Numbered from the stretch's first letter, positions 5,501 through 29,500 are shown. The stretch is DNA of 29,500 nucleotides from a bacterium (GCA_043800235.1 JAZDNE010000080.1:1-29500); one strand, 5' to 3'. Notes: generated by a model from the sequence alone, not told the origin. Numbers and translations: made by a program.

Positions 5501-5640
5501 TTAGATTTTTGCCATATGCCCGTCATCCTTAAACGAGTCAAAGCGAGTGAATAATCTCTTGATTAAGCGAAAAAAACTTTGGGATTATTTGTTCCTTTTT
5601 CTCTCAGAATTACGGATAACGGCATTCGGCGACAGTCTCT
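5501..5640 (-). mobile_element. Family B element, decayed copy
   Basis: GTGAATAATC..AAGCGAAAAAAACT.TGGGATT..CTCAGAAT.ACG..CATTCGGC aligns with the reverse complement of 22294-22436; right end GGCATTCGGCGACAGTCTCT then TTA. Left end is degenerate. Confidence 0.75.
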
Positions 5641-5651
5641 TTAAAAAATTT

Positions 5652-6213: not shown

Positions 6214-6663
6214 ATGTACTCAAAACAAGTTTTAAAACATTTTAAAAATCCGCATAATCAGGGGAAGATGGAAAATCCTACTGTTATCGGGGTTGCGGGA
6301 AATCCTGTTTGCGGGGATACGATGAAGATATATATAAAAGTTTCCGCCAAAGGCGGATCCGCCTCTGGCGGAAAGAGTGGTAAAATAAATAATTGCGATA
6401 AAAAATCCTCCTTAATCCCACTTTGCGAAAGGGGGAAATGTAAGATTGAGGATATAAAATTTGAGACATTGGGATGCGCGGCTGCGATAGCTTCTTCTTC
6501 AGTTTTGACGGATATGGCAAAAGGAAAAACTTTAGGCGAGGCATTAGAAATTACAAAAGGAGATGTAATAAAAAAATTAGGCGGTTTGCCGTCGCATAAA
6601 GAGCATTGTTCGCTTATAGCGGTTGATGCGTTGAGAAATGCCATAGATAAATTGAAAAAGTGA
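6214..6663 (+). CDS. iscU: IscU/NifU N-terminal-type Fe-S scaffold with repeat-derived insert
   Basis: MYSKQVLKHFKNPHN, NPVCGD, KFETLGCAAAIASSS, K.HCS: the three conserved Cys are present. Confidence 0.85.
   Translation: MYSKQVLKHFKNPHNQGKMENPTVIGVAGNPVCGDTMKIYIKVSAKGGSASGGKSGKINNCDKKSSLIPLCERGKCKIEDIKFETLGCAAAIASSSVLTDMAKGKTLGEALEITKGDVIKKLGGLPSHKEHCSLIAVDALRNAIDKLKK
6343..6372 (+). repeat. Double-hairpin palindrome in frame in iscU
   Basis: TCCGCC-AAA-GGCGGA-TCCGCC-TCT-GGCGGA, encoding SAKGGSASGG. Confidence 0.85.
6403..6436 (+). repeat. C-run/hairpin REP-like repeat in frame in iscU
   Basis: AAATCCTCCTTAA followed by stem TCCCACTTT-GCG-AAAGGGGGA. Confidence 0.6.
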
Positions 6664-6677
6664 AAAAAATAATTATT

Positions 6678-6908
6678 ATGAAGAATAAAATTTTAAAAAT
6701 ATTAAACAGTAAAATTAAACCGATGCTTCAAGCCGATGGCGGAGATTTGGAGTTAATTGAAGTCGATGAGAAAAATGGAATTGTAAAAGTTAGGATGACA
6801 GGCATGTGTTCTCATTGTCCTATGGCCGAGATGACTTTTCGGCATGGCATTGAAGAAGTTTTAAAAAAAGAAATTAAAGAAATTAAAAAAGTGGAATTGG
6901 CGAAATAG
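6678..6908 (+). CDS. NifU C-terminal (Nfu-type) Fe-S carrier domain protein
   Basis: IKPMLQADGGDLELI..VKVRMTGMCSHCPMA (CxxC). Start at 6660 or 6678 uncertain. Confidence 0.9.
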   Translation: MKNKILKILNSKIKPMLQADGGDLELIEVDEKNGIVKVRMTGMCSHCPMAEMTFRHGIEEVLKKEIKEIKKVELAK

Positions 6909-6909
6909 A

Positions 6910-6946
6910 GAATTATAAAATTAGAAATTAAAAAATTACAAATTAT
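6910..6946 (+). repeat. Degenerate 7-8 nt tandem repeat (AATTA core x5)
   Basis: GAATTAT AAAATTAG AAATTAA AAAATTAC AAATTAT, followed by a T-rich tract. Confidence 0.5.
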
Positions 6947-6979
6947 TTTTGTTTTGTTGTTTTTTGGTTTTTGACTTTT

Positions 6980-9589
6980 ATGACCCCGATGCTCAAACAA
7001 TATTTTGAGATAAAAGATAAACATAAGGATAAGATCCTTTTTTTTAGACTTGGTGATTTTTATGAAATGTTTGGCGCGGATGCTGAAAAAGCGTCAGTTA
7101 TTTTAGACATTGTTTTAACAGCGCGGCATAAAGGCACTGAGAATGAAATCCCTATGTGCGGTTTGCCGTATCATGCGGCGGATCAGTATATCGCTAAATT
7201 AACTAAAGCGGGAATGAAAGTCGCGATTTGCGAACAAGTTAGCGATCCGAGTTTGCCGGGAATAGTAAAAAGAGAAGTCGCGCAAATTATTACTCCTGGG
7301 ACAACTATGAATTCTTCTTTGCTTGATAAAGGGGAAAATAATTTTCTTGCATCCGTTGCGAGTAAATTGTTTCAAGAGACATCATCCGACTTGGTCGGAA
7401 CGGAAGGAAATAGAGAGCTTTTCGGCGTTGCATTTGTAGATTTGACAACAGGGGAATTTAAAGTAATGGAAATTTTTGGACAAGATAATTTAATCGCGGA
7501 ATTAAAAAGAATAAATCCCGCTGAAGTATTGGCAGACAATTTATTAAATAAATCAATTCAATGCGGCGGCGGCGAGAAAGCGGCAAATTGGTATTATATA
7601 TTTAAGAATGTAAGCAAGTTCATACCCGCAAATTATTTTGAGCCTGATAAAGTTTTATGCGAGCAATTTGGAGTGAATGGTTTGGAAGGATTTGGAATAG
7701 AAAAAATGAGAATAGGAATTCGCGCGGCGGCTAATTTAGCGATGTATTTGAAAGACACTCAAAAGAGGCAACTTAAACATATAAATAAAATTTCAGTTCA
7801 CAATCCTTATGATTATATGATTTTGGACGAGGCGACTATTAAAAATTTGGATTTGATATATAATTGGCAGATGAAATCGAAAGAAGGGACTTTAATTTCC
7901 ACGCTTGATAAAACATCTACCGCTATGGGCGCGCGGTTATTAAAGCAATGGATTCTCCGTCCTCTTATAAATATAAGCAACATTAAAAAAAGGTTGGGAG
8001 CGGTTGAATATTTTTACGATAATAATGATTTGCGGGATGAGCTTAGGATATTGTTTAAACAAATTTTGGATATAGAAAGATTATTGGCAAAAGTCGGATG
8101 TTTGAGAGTTAACGCGAGAGATCTTTTAGCTTTAAAAGAAAGTCTTAAAGTCGCGGAAAACATAAAAATGTATATTGCGAACTATGGCAATGGGATTGAA
8201 GAAATTTATGGAGCGCGAGAGATGAATGATTTAAAGTTAAAAGTTATTATAGATTTGATAGAAAAGTATATTTTGGATGATCCGCCCGTTTTAATTACTG
8301 ATGGCGGAATAATAAAAGATGGAAATAACAGCGAGTTGGATGAATTAAGGAATATTTCTAAAGGCGGCAAGTCATGGATTGCCGAATTACAGCAAAAAGA
8401 GCGGGAGAGGACGAATATAAATTCTTTAAAGATAAAGTTTAATAGAGTTTTCGGTTATTATATAGAGATTAGCAATGCTAATATTTCATCAGCGCCGGGA
8501 GATTATATAAGAAAACAAACTCTTGCAAACGGCGAGAGATTTACCACAGCTGAATTAAAAGAATATGAAGAAAAGGTTTTAAACGCTGAGGAGAAAATAA
8601 AGGAAATAGAATATAATATATTTATGGAAGTTGTTTTAAAGATTGCGGAATATTCTAAAATAATACAAAAAACAGCTTCTATTATCGCGGAATTTGATAT
8701 TTTTTTGAATTTTGCGCAGATCGCGAGAGAAAATAATTATGTAAAGCCTTACATTTCCGATAGCGCAAAAATTGATATTAAAGAAGGACGGCATCCCGTG
8801 ATTGAGCATAATAGCGAAGTTGATTTTGTCGCGAATGATTCCTGTTTGGATAATGAAAAACGCCGGTTTATAGTTTTAACGGGTCCTAATATGGCAGGGA
8901 AATCGGTTTATCTAAGACAGAATGCTTTAATTTGTTTAATGGCGCAAATAGGATCTTATGTCCCGGCGAAGGAAGCGAATCTTTGCGTGTTGGATAGAAT
9001 TTTTACTCGGGTTGGCGCGAGCGATAATATTGCGAAAGGGCAATCCACCTTTATGGTTGAAATGCAGGAAGCGGCAAGAATTATCCATAATGCTACTCAA
9101 AAAAGCCTTATTATTTTTGATGAATTGGGACGGGGCACGAGCACTTATGACGGGGTAAGCATAGCTTGGGCGGTTATAGAGCATATTCATAATAAAATAA
9201 AGGCGAAAACAGTTTTTGCAACTCATTATCATGAATTGGCGGAATTGGCGAATAATTTGGATGGTGTTCAGAATTTTCGAATGGCAGTATTAGAAAATGA
9301 GGATGGCGTAGTTTTTTTGCATAAGATAATTAAAGGCGGCATAGATAAAAGTTACGGGATAGAAGTCGCGAAATTGGCGGGGATGCCGCAAGAACTAATA
9401 AATAGAGCAAAGGAAATATTAAATAAATTGGAAAATGGACATAATTTCGATAATAAAACATATCATACGCAAGAGCCGTTGATTAAGATAGAATCAGAAG
9501 CGGAGAGGATAATTAGAGATCTTAATTTGAATAATATGACACCGATGGAAGCTTTAAATTTTTTGAAAAAAATGCAAAATAACGCCTAA
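6980..9589 (+). CDS. mutS: DNA mismatch repair protein MutS
   Basis: TPMLKQY, FFRLGDFYEMF, GPNMAGKS, STFMVEM, FDELGRGTST, FATHYHEL, SYGIEVA. Confidence 0.98.
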   Translation: MTPMLKQYFEIKDKHKDKILFFRLGDFYEMFGADAEKASVILDIVLTARHKGTENEIPMCGLPYHAADQYIAKLTKAGMKVAICEQVSDPSLPGIVKREVAQIITPGTTMNSSLLDKGENNFLASVASKLFQETSSDLVGTEGNRELFGVAFVDLTTGEFKVMEIFGQDNLIAELKRINPAEVLADNLLNKSIQCGGGEKAANWYYIFKNVSKFIPANYFEPDKVLCEQFGVNGLEGFGIEKMRIGIRAAANLAMYLKDTQKRQLKHINKISVHNPYDYMILDEATIKNLDLIYNWQMKSKEGTLISTLDKTSTAMGARLLKQWILRPLINISNIKKRLGAVEYFYDNNDLRDELRILFKQILDIERLLAKVGCLRVNARDLLALKESLKVAENIKMYIANYGNGIEEIYGAREMNDLKLKVIIDLIEKYILDDPPVLITDGGIIKDGNNSELDELRNISKGGKSWIAELQQKERERTNINSLKIKFNRVFGYYIEISNANISSAPGDYIRKQTLANGERFTTAELKEYEEKVLNAEEKIKEIEYNIFMEVVLKIAEYSKIIQKTASIIAEFDIFLNFAQIARENNYVKPYISDSAKIDIKEGRHPVIEHNSEVDFVANDSCLDNEKRRFIVLTGPNMAGKSVYLRQNALICLMAQIGSYVPAKEANLCVLDRIFTRVGASDNIAKGQSTFMVEMQEAARIIHNATQKSLIIFDELGRGTSTYDGVSIAWAVIEHIHNKIKAKTVFATHYHELAELANNLDGVQNFRMAVLENEDGVVFLHKIIKGGIDKSYGIEVAKLAGMPQELINRAKEILNKLENGHNFDNKTYHTQEPLIKIESEAERIIRDLNLNNMTPMEALNFLKKMQNNA
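7385..7399 (+). repeat. Short palindrome within an apparent MutS loop insert
   Basis: TCCGAC-TTG-GTCGGA. Confidence 0.4.
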
Positions 9590-9625
9590 TGGGACTTTCG
9601 CCAGATGTACCCGCCCGTCACCATT
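9590..9625 (+). repeat. Solo left TIR of the family A/B type, starting right after the mutS stop
   Basis: TAA|TGGGACTTTCGCCAGATG..CCCGTCACC, resembling the start of family B. Confidence 0.6.
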
Positions 9626-9654
9626 AAAAGTTAAAAAATTTTTAATTATTAAAT

Positions 9655-11622
9655 ATGATTCGCATTTTAGATAATAACTTAATAAATAAAATAGCGGCTG
9701 GAGAGGTTGTCGATAGACCTGCTTCAGTTGTTAAAGAATTAGTTGAGAATTCGCTTGACGCAGGCGCAGATTTTATAAGTGTAGAATTAAAAAATGGCGG
9801 CATAGATTTAATAGAAGTCGCGGATAATGGCAAGGGAATGAATAAAGATGATGCTATGTTATGCGTGAAAAGGCACGCGACGAGCAAAATTGAAAAAATA
9901 GAAGATCTTAATAATATTAGAAGTTTTGGTTTTAGGGGAGAGGCTTTAGCGGCGATTTCTTCTGTGAGCAGATTTAGCTTGCAAACGAAAGAGAAAGGAG
10001 CGATAAGCGGGGTTATTTTATCTTGCGGGTCGGAATCTCTCATTATTGACAATGGCTGTTATATTGATAAGTCGTCTGCGGCGGATGATAATAAATGGGA
10101 AATAAAAGATATAGGTTGCTCTGAAGGCGCGAAGATTCGCGCGGAAAATTTATTTTATAATATTCCGGCGCGGAAAAAATTTTTAAAAAGCGCGCAAACA
10201 GAATTTAATCATATTTTAAACACGCTTACTGATATTTCGCTTTCTAATTTTGGCGTTAGATTAAAATTAGTTCATAATGGAAAAATAATTTTTGATTATT
10301 TGGCGGACGCGAAACAACGCGAAGAAGAGCATAAAACGATGCAAAAAAATGATAATTGGGATAATAGAGTAAAGGTTGTTTTAGGGAACGATAATTTTTC
10401 TAAGATGATTCCTTTTTATCAAGAAGCGGGAGAAATGATTTTATGCGGATTTGCGTCTTCTTTGACGGATACCCATTCAATCAAAGGGCAACAATATTTA
10501 TTCGTTAATAATAGGCCAGTGCGCAACAATATTGTTCACAAGGCTATTTATGAAGCATATAGAAATTTAGTTCCCGCCGGGAGTCATCCTAATTTTGTAA
10601 TAAAATTAGATTTAGAGCCTGAATTAGTTGATGTTAATGTCCATCCTCGAAAAATGGAAGTAAAATTTTTACGCCAGCAGGATGTTTTTAAAATGGTTGA
10701 AGCTGTTGTAAGAGAAGCGGTGACAGGCAGAAAATTTAGAAATTTAGAAACTAATAAATTAGACTTAAGTTATGGATATTTAGCCAGTGGAAATAATGTT
10801 GAAATTCGAAACAAATCACAAAATCAAAATTTAAAATTTCAAAATGTGGAACAATATAAAACGCAGGAAAGGAATAATATTAGCAGATTATCGTCTTTCT
10901 TGCCCTGCTCAAGGGAGGGACTAAACGAGTATGGCCGCGCTGTTGTGAAAGATGGCAAACAGCAAGATGCTGTTAGGTTTTTCAATGATTCAATGTTTGG
11001 CGCGGAAAAGCGCGAGGGAGAAGAGTCATCTTGGAAATTGATAGGGCAGATTAAAAATTTATATTTGATTGTTGAGACAATAGATGGAATAATTTTAATT
11101 GATCAGCATGCCGCGCATGAAAGAATAATTTATGATAGTATAATAGAAAAAATAAAACAGGAAAATTATAAATTTCAACAGCTTTTTGTTCCGTTAAAAA
11201 TAGAACTTTCTTTGCGCGAGATGGTAAATTTAAAACAGAATTTTGAAATTTTAAAGAAAATCGGATTTGAGATAGAAGAATTTGGAACAAATACTATTAT
11301 TGTTCAAACCGTTCCGCAAGATATTTCAGGAAAAAATGTTGAAGAAATTATTAGAGGAATTATAAACGACTTGCTTTCTTTTGGGAGTGAAGATTTGAAA
11401 TTTAACGAAAAAACATTAGAAGAGGCGAGGAATAAAGTTGTGTGTTATATTTCTTGCAGAAGCGCTATTATGGCTGGGGATAAGATTTCTTTAGAGGAAC
11501 AAACTGATTTAGTTAGAAAAGTTATGAGTGGCGAAGTGAAGGCAACTTGTCCGCATGGAAGACCTATAATATCTATTTTGCGGTGGGATGAAATAGGAAA
11601 GAGATTTAAACGCAATTCATAA
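9655..11622 (+). CDS. mutL: DNA mismatch repair endonuclease MutL
   Basis: NKIAAGEVVDRPASVVKELVENSLDAGA, GFRGEAL, DVNVHPRK, DQHAAHERIIYD, QQLFVP clamp motif, SCR, CPHGRP. Confidence 0.98.
   Translation: MIRILDNNLINKIAAGEVVDRPASVVKELVENSLDAGADFISVELKNGGIDLIEVADNGKGMNKDDAMLCVKRHATSKIEKIEDLNNIRSFGFRGEALAAISSVSRFSLQTKEKGAISGVILSCGSESLIIDNGCYIDKSSAADDNKWEIKDIGCSEGAKIRAENLFYNIPARKKFLKSAQTEFNHILNTLTDISLSNFGVRLKLVHNGKIIFDYLADAKQREEEHKTMQKNDNWDNRVKVVLGNDNFSKMIPFYQEAGEMILCGFASSLTDTHSIKGQQYLFVNNRPVRNNIVHKAIYEAYRNLVPAGSHPNFVIKLDLEPELVDVNVHPRKMEVKFLRQQDVFKMVEAVVREAVTGRKFRNLETNKLDLSYGYLASGNNVEIRNKSQNQNLKFQNVEQYKTQERNNISRLSSFLPCSREGLNEYGRAVVKDGKQQDAVRFFNDSMFGAEKREGEESSWKLIGQIKNLYLIVETIDGIILIDQHAAHERIIYDSIIEKIKQENYKFQQLFVPLKIELSLREMVNLKQNFEILKKIGFEIEEFGTNTIIVQTVPQDISGKNVEEIIRGIINDLLSFGSEDLKFNEKTLEEARNKVVCYISCRSAIMAGDKISLEEQTDLVRKVMSGEVKATCPHGRPIISILRWDEIGKRFKRNS
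10895..10925 (+). repeat. Decayed hairpin repeat in frame in the MutL linker
   Basis: CTTTCTTGCCCTGCTCAAGGGAGGGACTAAA (CCCT/AGGG stem plus G-run). Confidence 0.45.
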
Positions 11623-11633
11623 TTTTGTAAATT

Positions 11634-11660
11634 AGAAAGGAGCATTCGGCTAAAGTCCCG
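11634..11660 (-). repeat. Solo right TIR of family A, just after the mutL stop
   Basis: Reverse complement CGGGACTTTAGCCGAATGCTCCTTT matches the family A end GGGACTGTCGCCGAATGCTCCTTT at 22 of 24 positions. Confidence 0.75.
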
Positions 11661-11670
11661 CTATAATTTT

Positions 11671-11991
11671 ATGCCAATTAAACTTAATATATCTCTTCTT
11701 CAAGACGCTATCAATCGCGCTGGCATAAGAAAGCAAGTTGATTCTGTTTTGGTTTTGGAAAAATTTATAAAAATTGTTGAAAAAATATTTACAGAAGAAT
11801 ATTCGAAAGAGCGGGCGCGTGGAATTTTAACTGATTTTAAGCCTTTGCATTTTAAAAATAAAGTGATAACTGTCGCGTCATTAAACCCTTCTTTAAGTCA
11901 GGAGCTTAGATTAAGAGAAAGGACGATTTTATATCGACTTAACAATGAATTTGGAAAAAATATTGTTGATAGGATTTTATTTGTTGTTTAA
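11671..11991 (+). CDS. DciA/DUF721-family protein
   Basis: FKNKVITVASLNPSLSQELRLRERTILYRLNNEFG..VDRILF pattern. Confidence 0.75.
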   Translation: MPIKLNISLLQDAINRAGIRKQVDSVLVLEKFIKIVEKIFTEEYSKERARGILTDFKPLHFKNKVITVASLNPSLSQELRLRERTILYRLNNEFGKNIVDRILFVV

Positions 11992-12000
11992 AATCAGCTG

Positions 12001-12573
12001 TTATTTATCTACGACTCTTTCTACATACTCGCCGCTTTCTGTGTTTACTCGCACAATATTTCCTTCTTTTATAAAAAGAGGAGCTTGAATTTTTAATCCA
12101 TTTTCTAAAGTTATATATTTTGTCGCTGTTGTAGAAGTATCTCCTTTAACAGCATCTGGCGCTTCAATTACTTTATAGTCGGCTTTAGGCGGCAAATCTA
12201 TTGAAATCGGATTGTTGTTGTAATATAAAATATAAATTTCAAGACCTTCTTTTAAGAATTTTCCTTGTTCTCCTATTACATCTTTTGATATGCTTGCTTG
12301 TTCGTAAGTGTCCTGTTCCATAAAATTATAGTTTTCTGGTTCTTCATAAAGATATTGCGCTTTTTTTCTTTGAAGATCCGCTGTCTCCACCTGCTCGCCT
12401 GATTTAAAAGTAATTTCAAGAAGTTTCCCTGTTTGGCAATTTTTTATTTTTGTGCGCGTGAAAGCCGTCCCTTTGCCCGGGTTTACTTTTTGAAAATCTG
12501 CAATTACATAAGGCTCTCCTTTCCATAGAAGAGCGACGCCTTTTTTAAAATCGGAAGTTGTGATTGTTGGCAT
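12001..12573 (-). CDS. efp: Elongation factor P
   Basis: VNPGKGTAFTR, YLYEE, VKGDTST, IQAPLFIKEG.IVRVNTESGEYVERV. Confidence 0.97.
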   Translation of the reverse strand: MPTITTSDFKKGVALLWKGEPYVIADFQKVNPGKGTAFTRTKIKNCQTGKLLEITFKSGEQVETADLQRKKAQYLYEEPENYNFMEQDTYEQASISKDVIGEQGKFLKEGLEIYILYYNNNPISIDLPPKADYKVIEAPDAVKGDTSTTATKYITLENGLKIQAPLFIKEGNIVRVNTESGEYVERVVDK

Positions 12574-12580
12574 ATTTTAC

Positions 12581-12608
12581 ACACCCTCGGCACCTCTATA
12601 GAGGGAAA
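12581..12608. repeat. Decayed C-run/hairpin repeat in the efp leader
   Basis: ACACCCTCGGCA plus perfect 12-bp palindrome CCTCTATAGAGG (12593-12604). Confidence 0.5.
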
Positions 12609-12620
12609 CTAAGTTTTAAC

Positions 12621-12786
12621 AGGGGCTGTCGCCGAATGCTCCTTTAGTCATAAATTTCCAGATTTACCAGGCATAATTTTTCAAACAAATTTTGCGGTTT
12701 AGCCTAAGCTAAAGGGAAAAAATTTTTTGGAAAATTTGACCGAAATATGGGGATTTAGGACAAAGAGGTATTCGGCGACAGCCCCT
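12621..12786 (+). mobile_element. Foldback MITE-like element, family A, copy 2 (complete, 166 bp)
   Basis: Perfect 17-bp TIR AGGGGCTGTCGCCGAAT; TAA at 12617-12619 (one extra C follows) and 12787-12789. Confidence 0.9.
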
Positions 12787-13876
12787 TAATGCCTAAACCA
12801 TTTTTATACGCGATTGAACATGCTCCTTCTCTTGATACCATACACGGTCCTTGCGGATTTTCCGGCGCGCATTTTTTATTAAAATTCGGACACTTTGCCG
12901 GCTCTATATTTCCTTTTATAACCTCCGCGCATAAACAATCCTCACTTGATGATGGCGTTAAACTATTATTAAAATCACTGCGCGCGTTTAACAAATTTCT
13001 ATATATTTCTTTCGCATCTATATTAGCATATTTTGCGCGAAGTTCGAAACCGCTATTGTGAATAATGCCAAGCCCTCGCCAATCGCTATTTTTAATCTCA
13101 AAAACCTCATCAATCAATTTTATAGCTTTTTTATTCCCCTCGGCTCTAACAACTCTTTTGTATTCATTTTCAACTTCAGCTCTGCCCTCGATAATTTGGC
13201 ATAAAAGCATTATTATCCCTTTTAAAACATCCGACATTTCAAACCCTGTTATAGCTTGCGGGATATTTCCATAGAAAGAACGAAGCATCGCCCCGTTCCC
13301 ACAACCTGAATAATGCGTTTTAAAATCACAAAACGCATCCGATCCGACAATAGCCGCCACATGACCTGGAGAAATCAAACCATCTACTTTTATTTCCCCG
13401 TTTGCCAGTAATGTTTTCATTGCCGGAATAAAAGCCTTATGCGCGGAATAAATTTTTTTTCCCCTCTTTGCGATTGAAGCGCTCATTGGAGCTGTCGTTT
13501 CAAAACCGATAGCAAAAAAAACTATCTCTTCCGAAAATTTTAATAATTCTTCAACTCCATAAATTTCTTTTACTTTCGCGCCCATTTCTCGCGCGTCCGC
13601 TAAACTCATTTTCGAACCTTTAACTCTTATCATATCTCCATAAGTTGCGATAGGAACCCCGCTTATCGCCAGTTTTACAACAGCGTCGATATCATTACGA
13701 GATGTGACGCAAACAGGACAACCTGGACCTGAAATAAGTTTCACATTTTGAGGCAAAATTTCTTTTATCCCGGATTCAGCGATAACTTGCGTATGCGTGC
13801 CGCAAACCTCCATTAGTTTAACTTCTCTTTTTATCTTTTTCGCTAAATTTTTAATTTTATCCAAATACTCTTGCAT
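12755..13876 (-). CDS. hypD: [NiFe]-hydrogenase maturation protein HypD
   Basis: MEVCGTHT, GPGCPVCV, GFETT, PGHV and C-terminal C..C..C..PCMVS.EGAC motifs. Confidence 0.95.
   Translation of the reverse strand: MQEYLDKIKNLAKKIKREVKLMEVCGTHTQVIAESGIKEILPQNVKLISGPGCPVCVTSRNDIDAVVKLAISGVPIATYGDMIRVKGSKMSLADAREMGAKVKEIYGVEELLKFSEEIVFFAIGFETTAPMSASIAKRGKKIYSAHKAFIPAMKTLLANGEIKVDGLISPGHVAAIVGSDAFCDFKTHYSGCGNGAMLRSFYGNIPQAITGFEMSDVLKGIIMLLCQIIEGRAEVENEYKRVVRAEGNKKAIKLIDEVFEIKNSDWRGLGIIHNSGFELRAKYANIDAKEIYRNLLNARSDFNNSLTPSSSEDCLCAEVIKGNIEPAKCPNFNKKCAPENPQGPCMVSREGACSIAYKNGLGIKGLSPNTSLS
13272..13302 (-). repeat. Decayed GTAG-type REP-like hairpin in frame in hypD
   Basis: Minus strand GTGGGAACGGGGC-GAT-GCTTCGTTCTTTCTA; 9-bp stem with two G-T pairs. 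Confidence 0.55.
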
Positions 13877-13916
13877 AAATCTATAATGTTAATATATACT
13901 TATTTCTAAATACCAT

Positions 13917-14741
13917 ATGCCCGAACTTCCAGAAGTTGAAACAATTAAAAAAGAATTAGAAGAAAAAATTTTAGGCAAAAAAATTGCCAAAGCAGAATTA
14001 ATTTTGCCTAAAATAACAAACTTTAATCAAAAAGATTTTATTAAAAGAATTAAAAATTCTAAAATTATTTTTATAGAAAGAAAAGCGAAAAATTTAGTTA
14101 TAAAATTATCCAACAAAGAAAATATTTTGATCCATTTGAAATTGACCGGGCAGTTAATTTATTTTGCGCCGAAAAAATACAAAAAACAAAAATACACGCA
14201 TTTGATATTTTATTTTTCTGACGGCTCTAAATTATTATATAATGATTTAAGGCAATTTGGTTATGTTAAATTATTATCAACGGAAGAATTGGAAAAATAT
14301 TTCAAAAAACAAAATTTTGGGATAAATCCAATAGATAAAAATTTTACTTTAACAAAATTTAATGAAATGCTCAAAAAAAAACGAGGTAAAATTAAAGTTG
14401 TTTTAATGGACCAAAAATTTATAGCGGGAATCGGCAATCTGTATGCGGCGGAAATCTGCTATTTTGCCAAAGTCCGTCCCGATAAAGAAATCTCGAAATT
14501 AAATGGGAAAAAAGTAAGCGAATTATTCCAAGGCATCAAAAAAATATTGCAAAAAGCGATCAAATATAAAGGATCATCAGTTGAAAATTATGTGGATATT
14601 TATGGAAAAAAAGGGGAATTTGTCCCTCATTTAAAAGTTTATAGAAGAGAAGGAAAAAAATGTTTGCGATGCGGCGTCGAAATAAAAGCTATGAAATTAG
14701 GCGGACGAGGAACATATTTTTGCCCGCAATGCCAAAAATAG
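13917..14741 (+). CDS. mutM: Formamidopyrimidine-DNA glycosylase (Fpg/MutM)
   Basis: N-terminal MPELPEVET, HLKLTG, GIGNLYAAE, C-terminal zinc finger C.RCG..GRGTYFCPQCQ. Confidence 0.97.
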   Translation: MPELPEVETIKKELEEKILGKKIAKAELILPKITNFNQKDFIKRIKNSKIIFIERKAKNLVIKLSNKENILIHLKLTGQLIYFAPKKYKKQKYTHLIFYFSDGSKLLYNDLRQFGYVKLLSTEELEKYFKKQNFGINPIDKNFTLTKFNEMLKKKRGKIKVVLMDQKFIAGIGNLYAAEICYFAKVRPDKEISKLNGKKVSELFQGIKKILQKAIKYKGSSVENYVDIYGKKGEFVPHLKVYRREGKKCLRCGVEIKAMKLGGRGTYFCPQCQK

Positions 14742-14776
14742 GAGTATTTACTCATATTAATCAATCTTTCCGCAAA

Positions 14777-15229
14777 TTAGTCATCAATATATAATCCCGT
14801 TCTATGTTCCTGCGCTTTGCCTGCGGCTTTTATTAATTTATCAAGCGTATAATACGCGACCGCATAAGCTGACAAAGTTATAATTAAACCAATAATTACA
14901 TCTCTTATTATTATTTTCGCTTTACTTACTTGCTCATCATTTCCTCCAGCAGTCATCCATAAATATCCTGCGTAAACAGCAAGGACGACGAAAACTAAAG
15001 CCAAAAGACTCAAAATATCTTTAATAATCTCGGCTATAATAATAACTATCCCTCTTTCTTTTTCACCTGCTTCGCCAATATCTTGCTTATATTCAGTTTG
15101 CTCAACAACCTTATTTAAAGAATTTTCCCAATTATAAGAATTTTGCGCCTTAATAATAGGCGCCATTATAAAAAAACAATATATAAGCGACAATAGCAAA
15201 AAATTATAATTTAGGATCTTTTTTCTCAT
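14777..15229 (-). CDS. CPR-type pilin (TrbC/VirB2-like)
   Basis: Signal/TM then YAGYLWMTAGGNDEQVSKAKIII..IIGLIITLSAY. Confidence 0.7.
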   Translation of the reverse strand: MRKKILNYNFLLLSLIYCFFIMAPIIKAQNSYNWENSLNKVVEQTEYKQDIGEAGEKERGIVIIIAEIIKDILSLLALVFVVLAVYAGYLWMTAGGNDEQVSKAKIIIRDVIIGLIITLSAYAVAYYTLDKLIKAAGKAQEHRTGLYIDD

Positions 15230-15252
15230 AATTTCACTTTATAAATTTTTAT

Positions 15253-15702
15253 TTATAAATTACTAATTGTTCCCGAAATTCTGCCCATCACATAATAAGT
15301 AATAGCGTAAGCCAAAAATACTATCGCGATTCCTATAATTGCGTTGATAATATAACTCTTTGCTTGCGATATTTTTTCTTCATTCCCATCTGCGGAAAAC
15401 CATAAATATCCTGCGTAAATTATTAAAATAATAAGTATTATTCCGACAAAACTCAAAACTAATTCAACTCCTTTTCCAATAATCGCATAAAATTTATTTT
15501 CAACATTCACGCTGGTTATTGGCTCTTGTCCAACTAAAGTATTATAATTTCCGCTTGCTCCTTCCTCTAATATTTCCTTTGCGTTATGCTCATCTATATT
15601 ATACTTTTCCGCAGATTCAGCTTGCACTTTTGCCAAATTTCCATTAACCGCAAAAAAAATGCTTAAAACTAAAATACAGTTTATTAAAATAATTTTTTTC
15701 AT
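15253..15702 (-). CDS. CPR-type pilin (TrbC/VirB2-like), tandem paralogue
   Basis: YAGYLWFSADGNEEKISQAKSYIINAIIGIAIVFLAY. Confidence 0.7.
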   Translation of the reverse strand: MKKIILINCILVLSIFFAVNGNLAKVQAESAEKYNIDEHNAKEILEEGASGNYNTLVGQEPITSVNVENKFYAIIGKGVELVLSFVGIILIILIIYAGYLWFSADGNEEKISQAKSYIINAIIGIAIVFLAYAITYYVMGRISGTISNL

Positions 15703-15740
15703 ACACTTGATACTTTATACTGAATAATTTATACTAATTA

Positions 15741-15906
15741 TGGGACTTATGCCGAATGCTCCTTTAGTCATAAATTGAAAGATTTACCAGGCATAATTTT
15801 TCAAACAAATTTTGCGGTTTAGCCTAAGCTAAGGGGTAAGAATTTTTTGGAAAATTTGACCGAAATATGGGAATTTAGGACAAAGAGGCATTCGGCATAA
15901 GTCCCA
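15741..15906 (+). mobile_element. Foldback MITE-like element, family A, copy 3 (complete, 166 bp)
   Basis: Perfect 19-bp TIR TGGGACTTATGCCGAATGC; TTA direct repeats at 15738-15740 and 15907-15909. Confidence 0.92.
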
Positions 15907-15929
15907 TTATATCATATTTTCACACATCT

Positions 15930-17027
15930 ATGCAACAAAGAACTTCAAATCTTATCGCCAGAGCTAAAATAATAGCAAATATCAGAAAATGGTTTGAAAA
16001 AAATCATTTTATTGAAGTTGAAACGCCTATCTTAGTTGACTGTCCTGATTTATCGCCAAATTTTGATATTCTAAAAACTAAAATCCATAATTCCCGCCTT
16101 AGCGCGTTTCCATCATCCATTTATCCTTTTACAAATCAATCGCATTCACAGAACTGTTTTTGTTTAGCGGGAAATGACGACAAAGGAAATACTAAATCTC
16201 TATCAAAATTATCCGCCGCATCTATAAAATATTTAATAACATCTCCCGAATTTTCAATGAAAAAATTATTAGCGCTTGAAAAATTAAACAACATTTATAC
16301 AATCACAAAAGTATTTCGCGATAATGAAGAAAACACGGGCATACATAGCATAGAATTTACTATGCTTGAATGGTATCGCAAAAATGCGGATTATACAGAT
16401 ATTATGCAAGATACAGAGGAATTAGTAACTCATCTTATTTGCTTCGCGCGCCCATTTCCCCGCCTAAAAATATCCAACCTCTTTAAAAAATACGCTTGCA
16501 TAGATAATGTCGAAAAATTATCTATTCCAGTATTCACAAAAATTATTCATTCGAGGGAATATAGCAAAGATAAAAATTTAACCTACGAACAATGCTTCAA
16601 TTTAATTTTTCTAAACGAAATAGAATCTAAACTTCCCAAAACCCCTTTTTTTCTTATAGACTACCCCGCCCCGCTCGCGGCGCTGGCAAAATTTAAAAAA
16701 AATAATCCGCATATAGCCGAAAGATTTGAATTATACATCAACGGCATAGAACTTTGCAACGGTTTTTCTGAACTTACTGACGGGAAAGAACAATTATCTC
16801 GTTTTAAAAAAGAAAATATCCTGCGCAAACGGATGGGCAAACCGCAACTTCCAATTGATTATGAATTATGTAAAAAATTAGATTCTATTTCTATAAAAAC
16901 AAAGGGACATCCTGTTCATGCGGCAAAGACCAAAAAAAACGCTATGGTAGGAGGCAACGCGATAGGCATAGATAGATTGGTTATGATTTTATTAAACGCG
17001 ACAGCGATTGATGAAGTTATGTATTAA
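15930..17027 (+). CDS. epmA: EF-P lysyl ligase EpmA (GenX/PoxA) with inserts
   Basis: FIEVETP, YLITSPEFSMKKLLA, VFRDNEE..H.IEFTMLEWYR, AERFELYINGIELCNGFSEL, AIGIDRL; lacks the LysRS anticodon domain. Confidence 0.88.
   Translation: MQQRTSNLIARAKIIANIRKWFEKNHFIEVETPILVDCPDLSPNFDILKTKIHNSRLSAFPSSIYPFTNQSHSQNCFCLAGNDDKGNTKSLSKLSAASIKYLITSPEFSMKKLLALEKLNNIYTITKVFRDNEENTGIHSIEFTMLEWYRKNADYTDIMQDTEELVTHLICFARPFPRLKISNLFKKYACIDNVEKLSIPVFTKIIHSREYSKDKNLTYEQCFNLIFLNEIESKLPKTPFFLIDYPAPLAALAKFKKNNPHIAERFELYINGIELCNGFSELTDGKEQLSRFKKENILRKRMGKPQLPIDYELCKKLDSISIKTKGHPVHAAKTKKNAMVGGNAIGIDRLVMILLNATAIDEVMY
16086..16180. repeat. Decayed CGTC-type inverted REP pair in frame in epmA
   Basis: CATAATTCCCGCCTTAGCG..CCAT on the left and TTAGCGGGAAATGACG on the right (reverse complement CGTCATTTCCCGC). 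Confidence 0.55.
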
Positions 17028-17046
17028 AAAATTTAATTTTTTATTT

Positions 17047-18153
17047 TTACCCATGCCTAAAAAACATCACATCGCCATCGCAAATAATGTAATCTTTGCC
17101 TTCCACTCTCATAACGCCATTCTCCTTAGCGCCGTTCCAGCCATTACAGGAAATAAAGTCATCATAAGAGACAACTTCCGCGCGGATGAAATTTGACTCA
17201 AAATCAGTATGAATCACGCCCGCGGCTTGCGGAGCTTTCGCGCCATTAACTACTGTCCACGCGCGCGTTTCCATCTCGCCAGATGTAAAAAATGTGAGTA
17301 ATCCTAAAAGCTTATAACTTGCGACTATTAACTTATCTAAACCAGATTCCGTTATTCCAAGTTCTTTCATATATTCTTTCGCTTCTTCTTCAGAAAGTTC
17401 CGCAAGTTCAGATTCTATTTTTGCGGAAATGTTTATAAGAGGCGACTTGCCAATTGGCAAATTTAATTCTTCAAGAGAGAGTCCGTTCGACTTCGCTCCG
17501 CTCTGCTCAAAATAATATTTTTTCTCATCCACATTCGCCACGAAAAGCATCGGCTTTAATGTCAAAAGACTTAATTCTTTTATTAAATATTTTTCCTCAT
17601 TGTCTAATTCCGCGTCAGACGCAAGATGACCTTTCTCTAAAATTTTCATAACCTTTTCTAAAACCGCGTTAACTTCCGCGACATGTTTATTGCCAGCTCT
17701 CATTTCTTTTTTTATACTTTCCAATCTTTTCGCGACAACCGACATATCGGCGAAAATAAGCTCCAAATTTATAACTTCCATATCAGATTTTGGATCGACT
17801 TTACCAGAAACATGAATCACATTCGGATCGGAAAATTCACGAACAATATGGCAAATCGCGTCAACTTCTCTTATATTTGCTAAAAATTTATTTCCCAAAC
17901 CTTCTCCTTTATGCGCGCCAGAAACTAAACCCGCGATATCTACAAATTTTATCGTTGCAGGAATAATTTTCGCCGATTTAGAAATAACCGCTAATTTTTC
18001 CAACCGCGCGTCAGGCGCATTAACAATGCCGACATTAGGATCAATCGTGCAAAATGGAAAATTAGAAGCGTCAACTTGTTTTTTTGTTATCGCTTTAAAA
18101 AGCGTAGACTTGCCGACATTTGGAAGTCCTACTATTCCTATTGATAAGCCCAT
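17047..18153 (-). CDS. ychF: Redox-regulated ATPase YchF (Obg family)
   Basis: GIVGLPNVGKST, NFPFCTIDPN, DIAGLV.GA.KGEGLGNKFL, TGS domain AP.AAGVIHTDF. Start placed at ATG 18153. Confidence 0.97.
   Translation of the reverse strand: MGLSIGIVGLPNVGKSTLFKAITKKQVDASNFPFCTIDPNVGIVNAPDARLEKLAVISKSAKIIPATIKFVDIAGLVSGAHKGEGLGNKFLANIREVDAICHIVREFSDPNVIHVSGKVDPKSDMEVINLELIFADMSVVAKRLESIKKEMRAGNKHVAEVNAVLEKVMKILEKGHLASDAELDNEEKYLIKELSLLTLKPMLFVANVDEKKYYFEQSGAKSNGLSLEELNLPIGKSPLINISAKIESELAELSEEEAKEYMKELGITESGLDKLIVASYKLLGLLTFFTSGEMETRAWTVVNGAKAPQAAGVIHTDFESNFIRAEVVSYDDFISCNGWNGAKENGVMRVEGKDYIICDGDVMFFRHG
17483..17509. repeat. GCTCC/GCTTC-type REP-like remnant in frame in ychF
   Basis: CCGTTCGACTTCGCTCCGCTCTGCTCA, a GC-rich island in AT-rich context; encodes EQSGAKSNG. 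Confidence 0.55.
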
Positions 18154-18159
18154 ATCAAC

Positions 18160-18190
18160 AAAACAAAAAATCAATAAAACAAAAAATCAA
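18160..18190. repeat. 15-bp direct repeat x2 upstream of ychF
   Basis: AAAACAAAAAATCAA at 18160-18174 and 18176-18190. Confidence 0.6.
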
Positions 18191-20134: not shown

Positions 20135-22436
<2,302 letters not shown>

Positions 22437-22471
22437 TTATTATTTTAGCATATCTAAAACTATCTGTCATC

Positions 22472-28180: not shown

Positions 28181-28187
28181 CTATATG

Positions 28188-28595
28188 CTACCTGCCTGCG
28201 CAGACAGAATACAATCTATTTTTTACTTGACATATAATGTTAAATAAAAATATTAGCACGCAATAAATTTTAAAACCAAAACTTTTCTGATAAGGGAAAA
28301 CTATATTCTTTTTCATATTGATAAGATATAGCTCTCCATTCATTTCTACTTTACTAAAACGCCCCTTACTTTCAAGAAATTTTATATCCATTTTTTTTTC
28401 TGTTTCAATTACTTTAATTTCTTTATTCTTTATTATTCCAAACCAACTTTTACCAAACAATCCTACGGAAAAAATAATAATCCCTTCTTTCAAACGAATT
28501 GTTGTTATTTCATATTCCCTTATAGGAATAAGAAAATTTCCGCAAGCCTTTCTAATTGATTCCAAAATATCACTTTTCTTGTCTTTCTTAATCAT
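28188..28595 (-). CDS. Hypothetical protein
   Basis: ATG 28595 is preceded by SD-like GAGGAGGGGG; no recognisable motif; the C-terminus runs into a repeat. Confidence 0.45.
   Translation of the reverse strand: MIKKDKKSDILESIRKACGNFLIPIREYEITTIRLKEGIIIFSVGLFGKSWFGIIKNKEIKVIETEKKMDIKFLESKGRFSKVEMNGELYLINMKKNIVFPYQKSFGFKIYCVLIFLFNIICQVKNRLYSVCAGR
28191..28207. repeat. Decayed CCTGCCTGC..GCAGGCAGG-type palindrome
   Basis: CCTGCCTGCGCAGACAG. Confidence 0.5.
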
Positions 28596-29150: not shown

Positions 29151-29159
29151 TTTTAATTA

Positions 29160-29338
29160 TGGACATCGCACTATGAAAGCGCGCTTAACAACTAAGAAAA
29201 ATTGATGAGTAACGAAGTTTTGCAAGTTTTAGGAAAACCGCAGATGTATCAGCAGATACGAAGAATATTTTCCTAAAATTAAAAACAAGCTAATCGCAAT
29301 TTTTATAGTTTATGGAGCGCGAAGTCATAGTGTGTCTA
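29160..29338. mobile_element. Family C 179-bp foldback element with TA flanks
   Basis: Nested stems CACTATGA/TCATAGTG, AAAAATTG/CAATTTTT, TTTTAGGAAAA/TTTTCCTAAAA, GTATC/GATAC; TA at 29158-29159 and 29339-29340. Confidence 0.7.
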
Positions 29339-29355
29339 TAGCCAATCATTTTTTA

Positions 29356-29500
29356 CGGGACTGTCGCCGAATGCTCCTTTAGTCATAAATTTCCAGATTT
29401 CGAGGCATAATTTTTCAAACAAATTTTGCGGTTTAGCCTAAGCTAAGCCAATAAATTTTTTGGAAAATTTGACCGAAATATGGGAATTTAGGACAAAGAG
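29356..29500 (+). mobile_element. Foldback MITE-like element, family A, copy 4 (cut by window end)
   Basis: TTA|CGGGACTGTCGCCGAATGCTCCTTTAG..; near-identical to copy 1. Confidence 0.88.

Follow-up and report, generated by a model that had tools for sequence, protein, structure and literature searches.

Repeat elements in the reading frames of iscU and hypD

The 29.5-kb window analyzed here is the entire contig C138 (JAZDNE010000080.1, positions 1-29500) of the bacterial assembly GCA_043800235.1. Within it, the genes iscU and hypD carry short palindromic elements inside their open reading frames (ORFs). The elements belong to repeat families dispersed through the genome, they lie in frame, and they are absent from orthologues. 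In predicted structures they fall in loops, and different families recur at the same loop in related genera. Very probably, they are selfish elements resembling repetitive extragenic palindromic (REP) sequences and MITEs (miniature transposable elements with inverted repeats), retained where the frame was kept and the loop was permissive.

The assembly (G000) is a metagenome-assembled genome (MAG) of 1.13 Mb in 158 contigs, with 34% GC and 87% completeness; judged from the names of its homologues, the host belongs to the Patescibacteria, or candidate phyla radiation (CPR). A sequence-only reading of the window had proposed that six proteins, IscU, MutS, MutL, HypD, EpmA and YchF, are lengthened at loops by GC-rich palindromes that leave every frame open. 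Pfam confirmed all six gene identities, and each of the genes is an open reading frame throughout. Orthologues were taken from the other three genera (G001-G003) in the family to which G000 belongs, and distant class members were also aligned; compared to the G001-G003 orthologues, 6 of 6 proteins have surplus residues at the sites in question. Candidate stretches were folded and scored (z) against 200 shuffles, and repeat membership was assessed genome-wide with iterated nhmmer family profiles. The MutS, MutL, EpmA and YchF inserts were also searched, using 7-nt words, against the 630 repeated regions of the genome, and no hit exceeded the control, in which 16% of random 80-mers out of these genes score E<0.01 against this repeat set. 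By folds and profiles, the GC-rich hairpin or repeat nature of the inserts held for IscU and HypD, but not for MutS, MutL, EpmA and YchF.

Two stacked elements in IscU

IscU (6214-6663, plus strand) is a NifU_N scaffold protein of 149 residues. An insert of about 32 residues (45-76) separates the first conserved cysteine from the second, and the Pfam NifU_N match falls into two stretches. In most relatives of the class, IscU is 125-133 residues in size and the insert is absent. The fold of the stretch 6337-6440 has a z score of -4.36, and none of the 200 shuffles equaled it.

Two elements make up this stretch. The first belongs to family D; it is a twin hairpin, TCCGCC-AAA-GGCGGA followed by TCCGCC-TCT-GGCGGA, at 6340-6376 on the plus strand (profile E 5.5e-12), and its translation is SAKGGSASGGKS. 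An intergenic sequence on another contig (C132:5316-5353) matches it at 38 of 38 nucleotides, and similar copies are located on C20 (two), C21, C19 and C68; among the seven family D loci, the IscU copy is the sole one internal to an ORF. The second element, at 6401-6438 on the minus strand (profile E 1.7e-9), belongs to family C and consists of CCCCCTTT-N3-AAAGGGGG and then a second G-run. Its stem is partly decayed, and the coding strand reads KKSSLIPLCERGK.

The same loop holds differing, nested combinations of elements in 19 relatives, and most of the class has none. Related elements occupy the identical loop in the G003 and G002 orthologues; in P0009 a third element is nested within the C element, and the closest homologue, P0002, has no D element. 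A contig search for loci related to IscU returned distant IscU relatives only. In the AlphaFold2 model of IscU (built, like that of HypD, with an alignment; mean predicted local distance difference test score, pLDDT, 82), the insert is flanked by strands 35-44 and 77-85, and pLDDT is below 50 at residues 47-69.

The composition of the insert is also of note for an Fe-S scaffold. Residues 61-76 (window 6390-6445) are repeat-derived and bring three extra cysteines into the protein; these cysteines are unconserved, with zero at these positions in G003 and two in P0002.

A family B insert and a MITE-derived tail in HypD

HypD is 373 residues in length and is encoded on the minus strand at 12755-13876 (Pfam HypD, E 3.7e-116). 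One decayed hairpin of family B, a REP-like family of GTAG type, lies at 13265-13311 on the minus strand and accounts for a 12-residue insert (residues 191-202). Its profile E value is 2.9e-7 genome-wide; the fold z score is -3.41, again with none of the 200 shuffles equal to it. The insert is missing in G001-G003 and in 22 of the 23 aligned homologues. The exception is P0122, which has a B-type peptide, better preserved, at the identical site. The outcomes that the sequence-only reading had named as counting against it did not appear: the motifs are multi-copy in the genome, and close orthologues are without the HypD insert.

The C-terminus of HypD is also derived from a repeat. A family A MITE with terminal inverted repeats of about 24 nt spans 12622-12790 (no strand assigned), and its right end encodes the last 11 hypD codons and the stop (12755-12790).

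The AlphaFold2 model of HypD (mean pLDDT 86) falls below 50 solely at residues 191-200, 303-311 and 362-373. The first segment is the family B insert, forming the turn of a β-hairpin between strands 186-190 and 200-204; the second is a variable site, which in G002 holds a perfect family C element; the third is the MITE-derived tail. Mapping on predicted structures, which had been suggested as a check, showed both inserts, that of IscU and that of HypD, in turns of low confidence flanked by confident β-strands. G000 HypD retains all columns invariant across 24 homologues, and G000 IscU retains every invariant column of its aligned homologues, which, at the level of sequence, argues for working proteins.

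Inserts of MutS, MutL, EpmA and YchF

The MutS gene (6971-9589, plus strand) has its insert at residues 133-143 (7367-7399, plus strand), a site that varies between genera in the orthologue alignment. The insert contains one perfect 15-nt hairpin with a 6-bp stem, TCCGAC-TTG-GTCGGA, at 7385-7399. This mini-hairpin is possibly a D-like relic; the fold of the insert is non-significant (z -0.72), and no match was found among the 630 repeated regions.

In MutL (9655-11622, plus strand), the extra residues 130-141 (10042-10077, plus strand) are encoded by AT-rich, non-palindromic sequence (GC 0.31, z +1.06); the G000 protein has a second surplus stretch at residues 382-388. The 130-141 insert may be a decayed relic, or merely a variable loop. 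At the matching site, G002 MutL has a clean palindrome, GTAGAGACG...CGTCTCTAC. One hairpin in MutL, at 10127-10142, was considered as an element and rejected; it lies within conserved sequence and is a chance palindrome.

EpmA (15930-17027, plus strand) has two inserts. The one at residues 60-88 (16107-16193, plus strand; the entire variable stretch is approximately 16095-16229) is neither GC-rich nor palindromic (z +1.0). The corresponding site holds a perfect 28-nt palindrome in G003 and, in G002, a long palindromic element of about 75 residues. The other insert, residues 322-338 (16893-16943, plus strand), is 17 residues in size, is present in G000 only, and is non-palindromic (z -0.14). 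The GC content of the MutL and EpmA inserts is 0.29-0.39; none of them, at either EpmA site or in MutL, has a significant match among the 630 repeated regions or a significant fold.

YchF (17047-18174, minus strand) carries its insert at residues 222-234 (17473-17511, minus strand; GC 0.54). Positions 17482-17498 match the low-copy family E at 17 of 17 nucleotides. YchF was nevertheless rejected as a member of family E, since the iterated nhmmer profile of the family did not recover the insert, which is non-palindromic (fold z +0.87). In G001, the YchF site holds two clean C-type hairpins.

At sites that are non-palindromic in G000, sister genera have clean palindromes, in MutL (G002), EpmA (G003 and G002) and YchF (G001). 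It is likely but unproven that the MutL, EpmA and YchF inserts and the MutS mini-hairpin arose by hairpin decay.

The four proteins also bear on another explanation, in which the inserts would be ordinary lineage-specific loop indels that look like repeats only by chance, having arisen by slippage, from small duplications or through selection for new loops. The G000 inserts of MutS, MutL, EpmA and YchF, which have no significant repeat match or fold, are what this explanation expects, and length differences in these loops, the MutL linker and the MutS domain I-II junction among them, are seen across all relatives. However, it leaves unexplained the profile E values of 1e-7 to 1e-12 in IscU and HypD, the 38/38 identity with an intergenic sequence and the significant hairpins; nor does it account for the other in-gene copies of families B and C, approximately 33 in the rest of the genome, or for the unmistakable palindromes of sister genera at the MutL, EpmA and YchF sites. 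We consider ordinary indels an unlikely source of the inserts as a whole.

Different families at the same loops in related genera

The recurrence of different families at one loop extends beyond the window. In the IscS, MurG and PorA loops, G000 has elements of families B, B and C, respectively; in the sister genera these loops are empty or hold elements resembling families C, E or F. Different families stand at the same loop across genera, so these loops appear permissive and hit independently. Judged from the aligned sequences, presence and absence across relatives favors repeated insertion over ancestral loops.

The family C core was found in 4 of 4 genomes of the family (13-56 copies) and in 3 of 37 other class genomes, or 7 of 41 overall; the family D core is present in 35 of the 41 class genomes and reaches 105 copies. 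In these core searches, controls with the pattern reversed gave 0-2.

The wide conservation of the family D hairpin could also be read as a sign of function. In-gene hairpins might be selected cis elements, such as mRNA stabilizers, attenuators, translation pauses or signals for DNA uptake or recombination, or might be taken out before translation or in its course. The copies that these families have between genes could serve as RNA hairpins, and GTAG and CGTC REPs are thought to work in part as RNA elements (PMC3733652). However, the family found in a given loop differs by genus and many orthologues are empty, which speaks against a conserved site-specific function; the in-gene copies decay, as the degraded HypD and IscU family C stems illustrate; and the Rfam search of the window returned zero family matches. 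Such a role is, in our opinion, very improbable.

Repeat families and host genes across the genome

The genome contains 279 perfect GC-rich hairpins with a 6-bp stem, compared to 33-48 under local shuffling; 129 of them are inside crude gene calls. Using iterated profiles, we counted the loci of each family and scored a locus as ORF-internal if it lies inside a long ORF with at least 25 residues on each side. Counting coding against intergenic copies had been proposed at the outset, and all the families proved multi-copy. Family A, the MITE, has 149 loci and none in long ORFs; family B has 29 loci (9 in long ORFs), family C 28 (23-24), family D 7 (1) and family E 9 (3). The in-gene share of family C is close to the coding density, which is 83% by the crude gene map.

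At least 20 ORFs are affected genome-wide, and in at least 13 the element is within a Pfam domain envelope. The hosts are genuine genes, and Pfam domains flank the element on both sides in at least 13 of them; such hosts include SecA, MurC, MurG, MraY, the cysteine desulfurase IscS, PorA and PorB, as well as PPDK, RecO, the NiFe-hydrogenase large subunit, GH15, GT2, a ManC-like transferase, a ResIII helicase and a DNA methylase. The proposal that a multi-family process of in-frame insertion, comparable to that of Rickettsia palindromic elements (RPEs), operates in this lineage is thus upheld; it is clear in IscU and HypD and extends to these ORFs.

The families differ in architecture. Family A is of uniform length (162-164 nt), has terminal inverted repeats of approximately 24 nt and, with about 150 loci, makes up around 2% of the genome; a 5-bp target duplication, seen as identical 5-nt flanks, was present in 18 of 38 clean copies. 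Family B is an element of about 47 nt with a core stem of about 12-15 bp beginning with GTAG, or GCAG in some copies; copies read ..TGTAGGAACGAGG.. or ..TGCAGG.., and the HypD copy has GTGG. Family C is the CCCCCTTT..AAAGGGGG hairpin, which also makes the inverted ends of a composite element of about 200 nt. Copies of this composite were located in G000 at C13:505-716, C2:4061-4262, C146:3928-4133 and C31:4927-5085. It keeps the frame of its hosts, which are the ManC-like transferase, MraY, a TPR protein and SecA, and lengthens them by about 50-65 residues. Some composite copies have a second hairpin, started by CGTC, between both G-runs. We also considered whether the flanking host sequence, copied in reverse, supplies the stems, and rejected the idea, because the in-gene stems of families B and C end at the element core.

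Survival of copies that keep the frame

The pattern of in-frame copies confined to loops is best explained by a survivorship filter, because the stop-rich 163-nt MITE is never ORF-internal, whereas the in-gene frequency of the stop-free elements of 30-47 nt roughly equals the coding density. The sequence-only reading had gone further and inferred that the process targets surface loops. This part is unsupported: random insertion with survival in permissive loops fits the data equally well, and we think it the better account.

In the mechanism we propose, several small non-autonomous repeat families (A-D, with E and F at low copy) would colonize the genome, and new copies would land anywhere in it. 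Selection would spare those copies that add a multiple of three bases, bring no stop into the reading frame of the host and lie in a loop that the structure leaves free to grow; the spared copies would be translated into extra, probably disordered, loop residues. In IscU, one element would have been inserted beside the other, in a loop already expanded, and the same process may have given HypD both its 12-residue insert and its MITE-derived tail. Over time, the hairpins would decay towards the AT-rich background. We infer that the inserts are translated and neutral.

As for mobilization, two C-terminal fragments of Y1_Tnp, related to REP-associated tyrosine transposases (RAYTs) and IS200, were found at contig ends, one at C110:2-163 and the other, which exceeds the cut-off with 28 bits, at C135:12572-12742. 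Directly beside the C135 fragment stand a GTAG palindrome, GTAGAGACAGG, and a tandem array in which that motif recurs in 15-nt units. The hairpin families are probably moved in trans by a RAYT-like Y1 transposase, and the MITE by a DDE transposase; the small families are taken to be REP-like elements mobilized in trans.

Two further observations concern nucleases and transposases in G000. At bases 1690-1874 of the locus L071 (C135:11072-12945), the palindrome GTAGAGACAGGTTT/GAAACCTGTCTCTAC interrupts or truncates a RAYT-like Y1 transposase gene and is followed by a tandem array of the 15-nt unit up to the contig end. The search for candidate mobilizing enzymes also turned up two short ORFs, at C158:4617-4838 and C107:7311-7520, each for a free-standing GIY-YIG nuclease of about 103-108 residues.

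A broader reading can be built on these families, in which they are phylum-wide, still active, very small single-stranded DNA hairpin elements, mobilized in trans by RAYT-like Y1 transposases, which re-enter and stack in the same loops of essential proteins in different lineages, are a main source of protein length variation and new loops in these reduced genomes, and possibly prefer sites defined by DNA structure. We regard it as possible but rather doubtful.

Several points weigh against selfish elements retained in permissive loops as the origin of the inserts. Four of the six inserts first singled out are tied to no repeat family, and the view that they are decayed relics is drawn from sister genomes. 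P0122 shares the B-type insert of HypD though it is no closer to G000 than insert-free genomes are; therefore, loss or independent insertion has to be assumed. Finally, an intact transposase was not found in G000, a fragmented MAG of 87% completeness.

Other elements and genes in the window

Between the genes, related motifs had been reported at 5521-5615, 12581-12608, 22320-22410 and 28191. The first and third of these regions do hold a multi-copy family, family F, but it differs from the in-gene families; the other two motifs are single-copy in the genome, and their hairpins are non-significant (fold tests over 12575-12615 and 28183-28215). The family F element at 22304-22440 (no strand assigned) is 137 nt in length with long inverted ends (fold z -2.29), and copies of 96-99% identity are present on C142, C32 and C72. 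A decayed, inverted partial copy lies at 5542-5592; the fold test of 5521-5615 was non-significant.

A second full family A MITE occupies 15742-15910 (no strand assigned), in the divergent spacer just upstream of epmA, with ATTAT duplicated on both flanks. Inverted family A half-copies are found at 9590-9607, right after the mutS stop, and at 11636-11663, right after the mutL stop, so that mutL is bracketed. Solo family A halves at 5616-5643 and 22412-22439 are each just upstream of a gene start and carry an AAAGGAG motif resembling a Shine-Dalgarno sequence. A further repeat of about 180 nt at 29153-29336 has about 29 matches in the genome and is unrelated to families A-F.

Copies of the MITE also stand at both window ends, at 1-142 and 29352-29493. 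In the former, the MITE end 108-141 contains an ATG in frame with the downstream ORF 72-713; therefore, this ORF may owe its N-terminus to the MITE, in mirror fashion to the C-terminal tail of HypD.

Contigs of the assembly break at family A copies. With the MAG in 158 contigs and the MITE at both ends of the window, it has to be considered that the in-gene elements might stem from faulty assembly or binning, with repeats collapsed or joined into chimeras. However, the host sequence is continuous and in frame on either side of each element, and independent MAGs of three other genera, together with unrelated metagenome proteins, have elements in the same loops. An artefactual origin is hardly credible.

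The remaining genes of this part of the window were assigned by Pfam. DciA and then EF-P (minus strand) are located between MutL and HypD, and Fpg between HypD and EpmA.

Relation to known repeat systems

RPE-1 to RPE-10 are the classic in-frame palindromic elements of Rickettsia (PMC10969869). For GTAG and CGTC REPs, intragenic copies are known in other phyla, many in replication and repair genes; the survey concerned did not include Patescibacteria (Di Nocera et al. 2013, PMC3733652). Our search of the literature on palindromic, MITE or RPE-like elements in Patescibacteria/CPR found no account of in-frame palindromic elements.

Like RPEs, the elements described here form several dispersed palindromic families in a small, AT-rich, reduced genome (29, 28 and 7 loci for families B, C and D); many copies (9 B, 23-24 C and 1 D) lie in frame in unrelated housekeeping ORFs that stay open; and the inserts are at positions compatible with the fold (IscU 47-69 and HypD 191-200 in the AlphaFold2 predictions). 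Different from RPEs, which are about 100-150 bp and encode a conserved peptide of 30-50 residues, the in-gene elements of the window are 30-47 nt and encode 10-16 residues; solely the composite of about 200 nt with C-type ends is RPE-sized. By length, the elements of the window thus fall outside the RPE families in their current definition. The host phylum, Patescibacteria, is also different, the in-gene share of family C (24 of 28 loci) roughly matches the coding density, and the likeness to RPEs is a functional one, not drawn from sequence homology.

GTAG-tagged REPs are the class recognized by RAYTs. Family B resembles them in being an imperfect palindrome of 30-40 nt with many copies and a GTAG-type stem start (GTGG in the HypD copy), and in being mainly extragenic (20 of 29 loci) with a minority in genes; RAYT-like Y1 fragments are present in the genome as well. 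However, a GTAG or CGTC tag is lacking in families C and D, and only 4 of the 28 family C loci are extragenic. A further difference from REP-RAYT systems is that no intact, repeat-flanked RAYT was found in the 87%-complete MAG. Family A is like bacterial MITEs in its terminal inverted repeats, 5-bp target duplication, uniform length, copy number of about 150 and fusion to ORF ends; it departs from them in that it is never ORF-internal, the in-frame inserts coming from far smaller hairpin families.

To our knowledge, in-frame selfish repeats are textbook matter for Rickettsia only, with scattered intragenic REPs elsewhere. The elements of G000 are like RPEs and intragenic REPs in operation, but they are new families in a new phylum. 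Several unrelated mini-families act in this way in a free-standing, ultra-small lineage, with about 130 perfect GC-rich in-gene hairpins per 1.1 Mb. For tests of CPR RAYT-like transposases, the GTAG hairpin of family B is a concrete substrate. The finding bears on the annotation and alignment of CPR proteins, where spurious 'insertions' and low-complexity peptides occur, and on protein novelty in reduced genomes and the protein loops that tolerate insertion.

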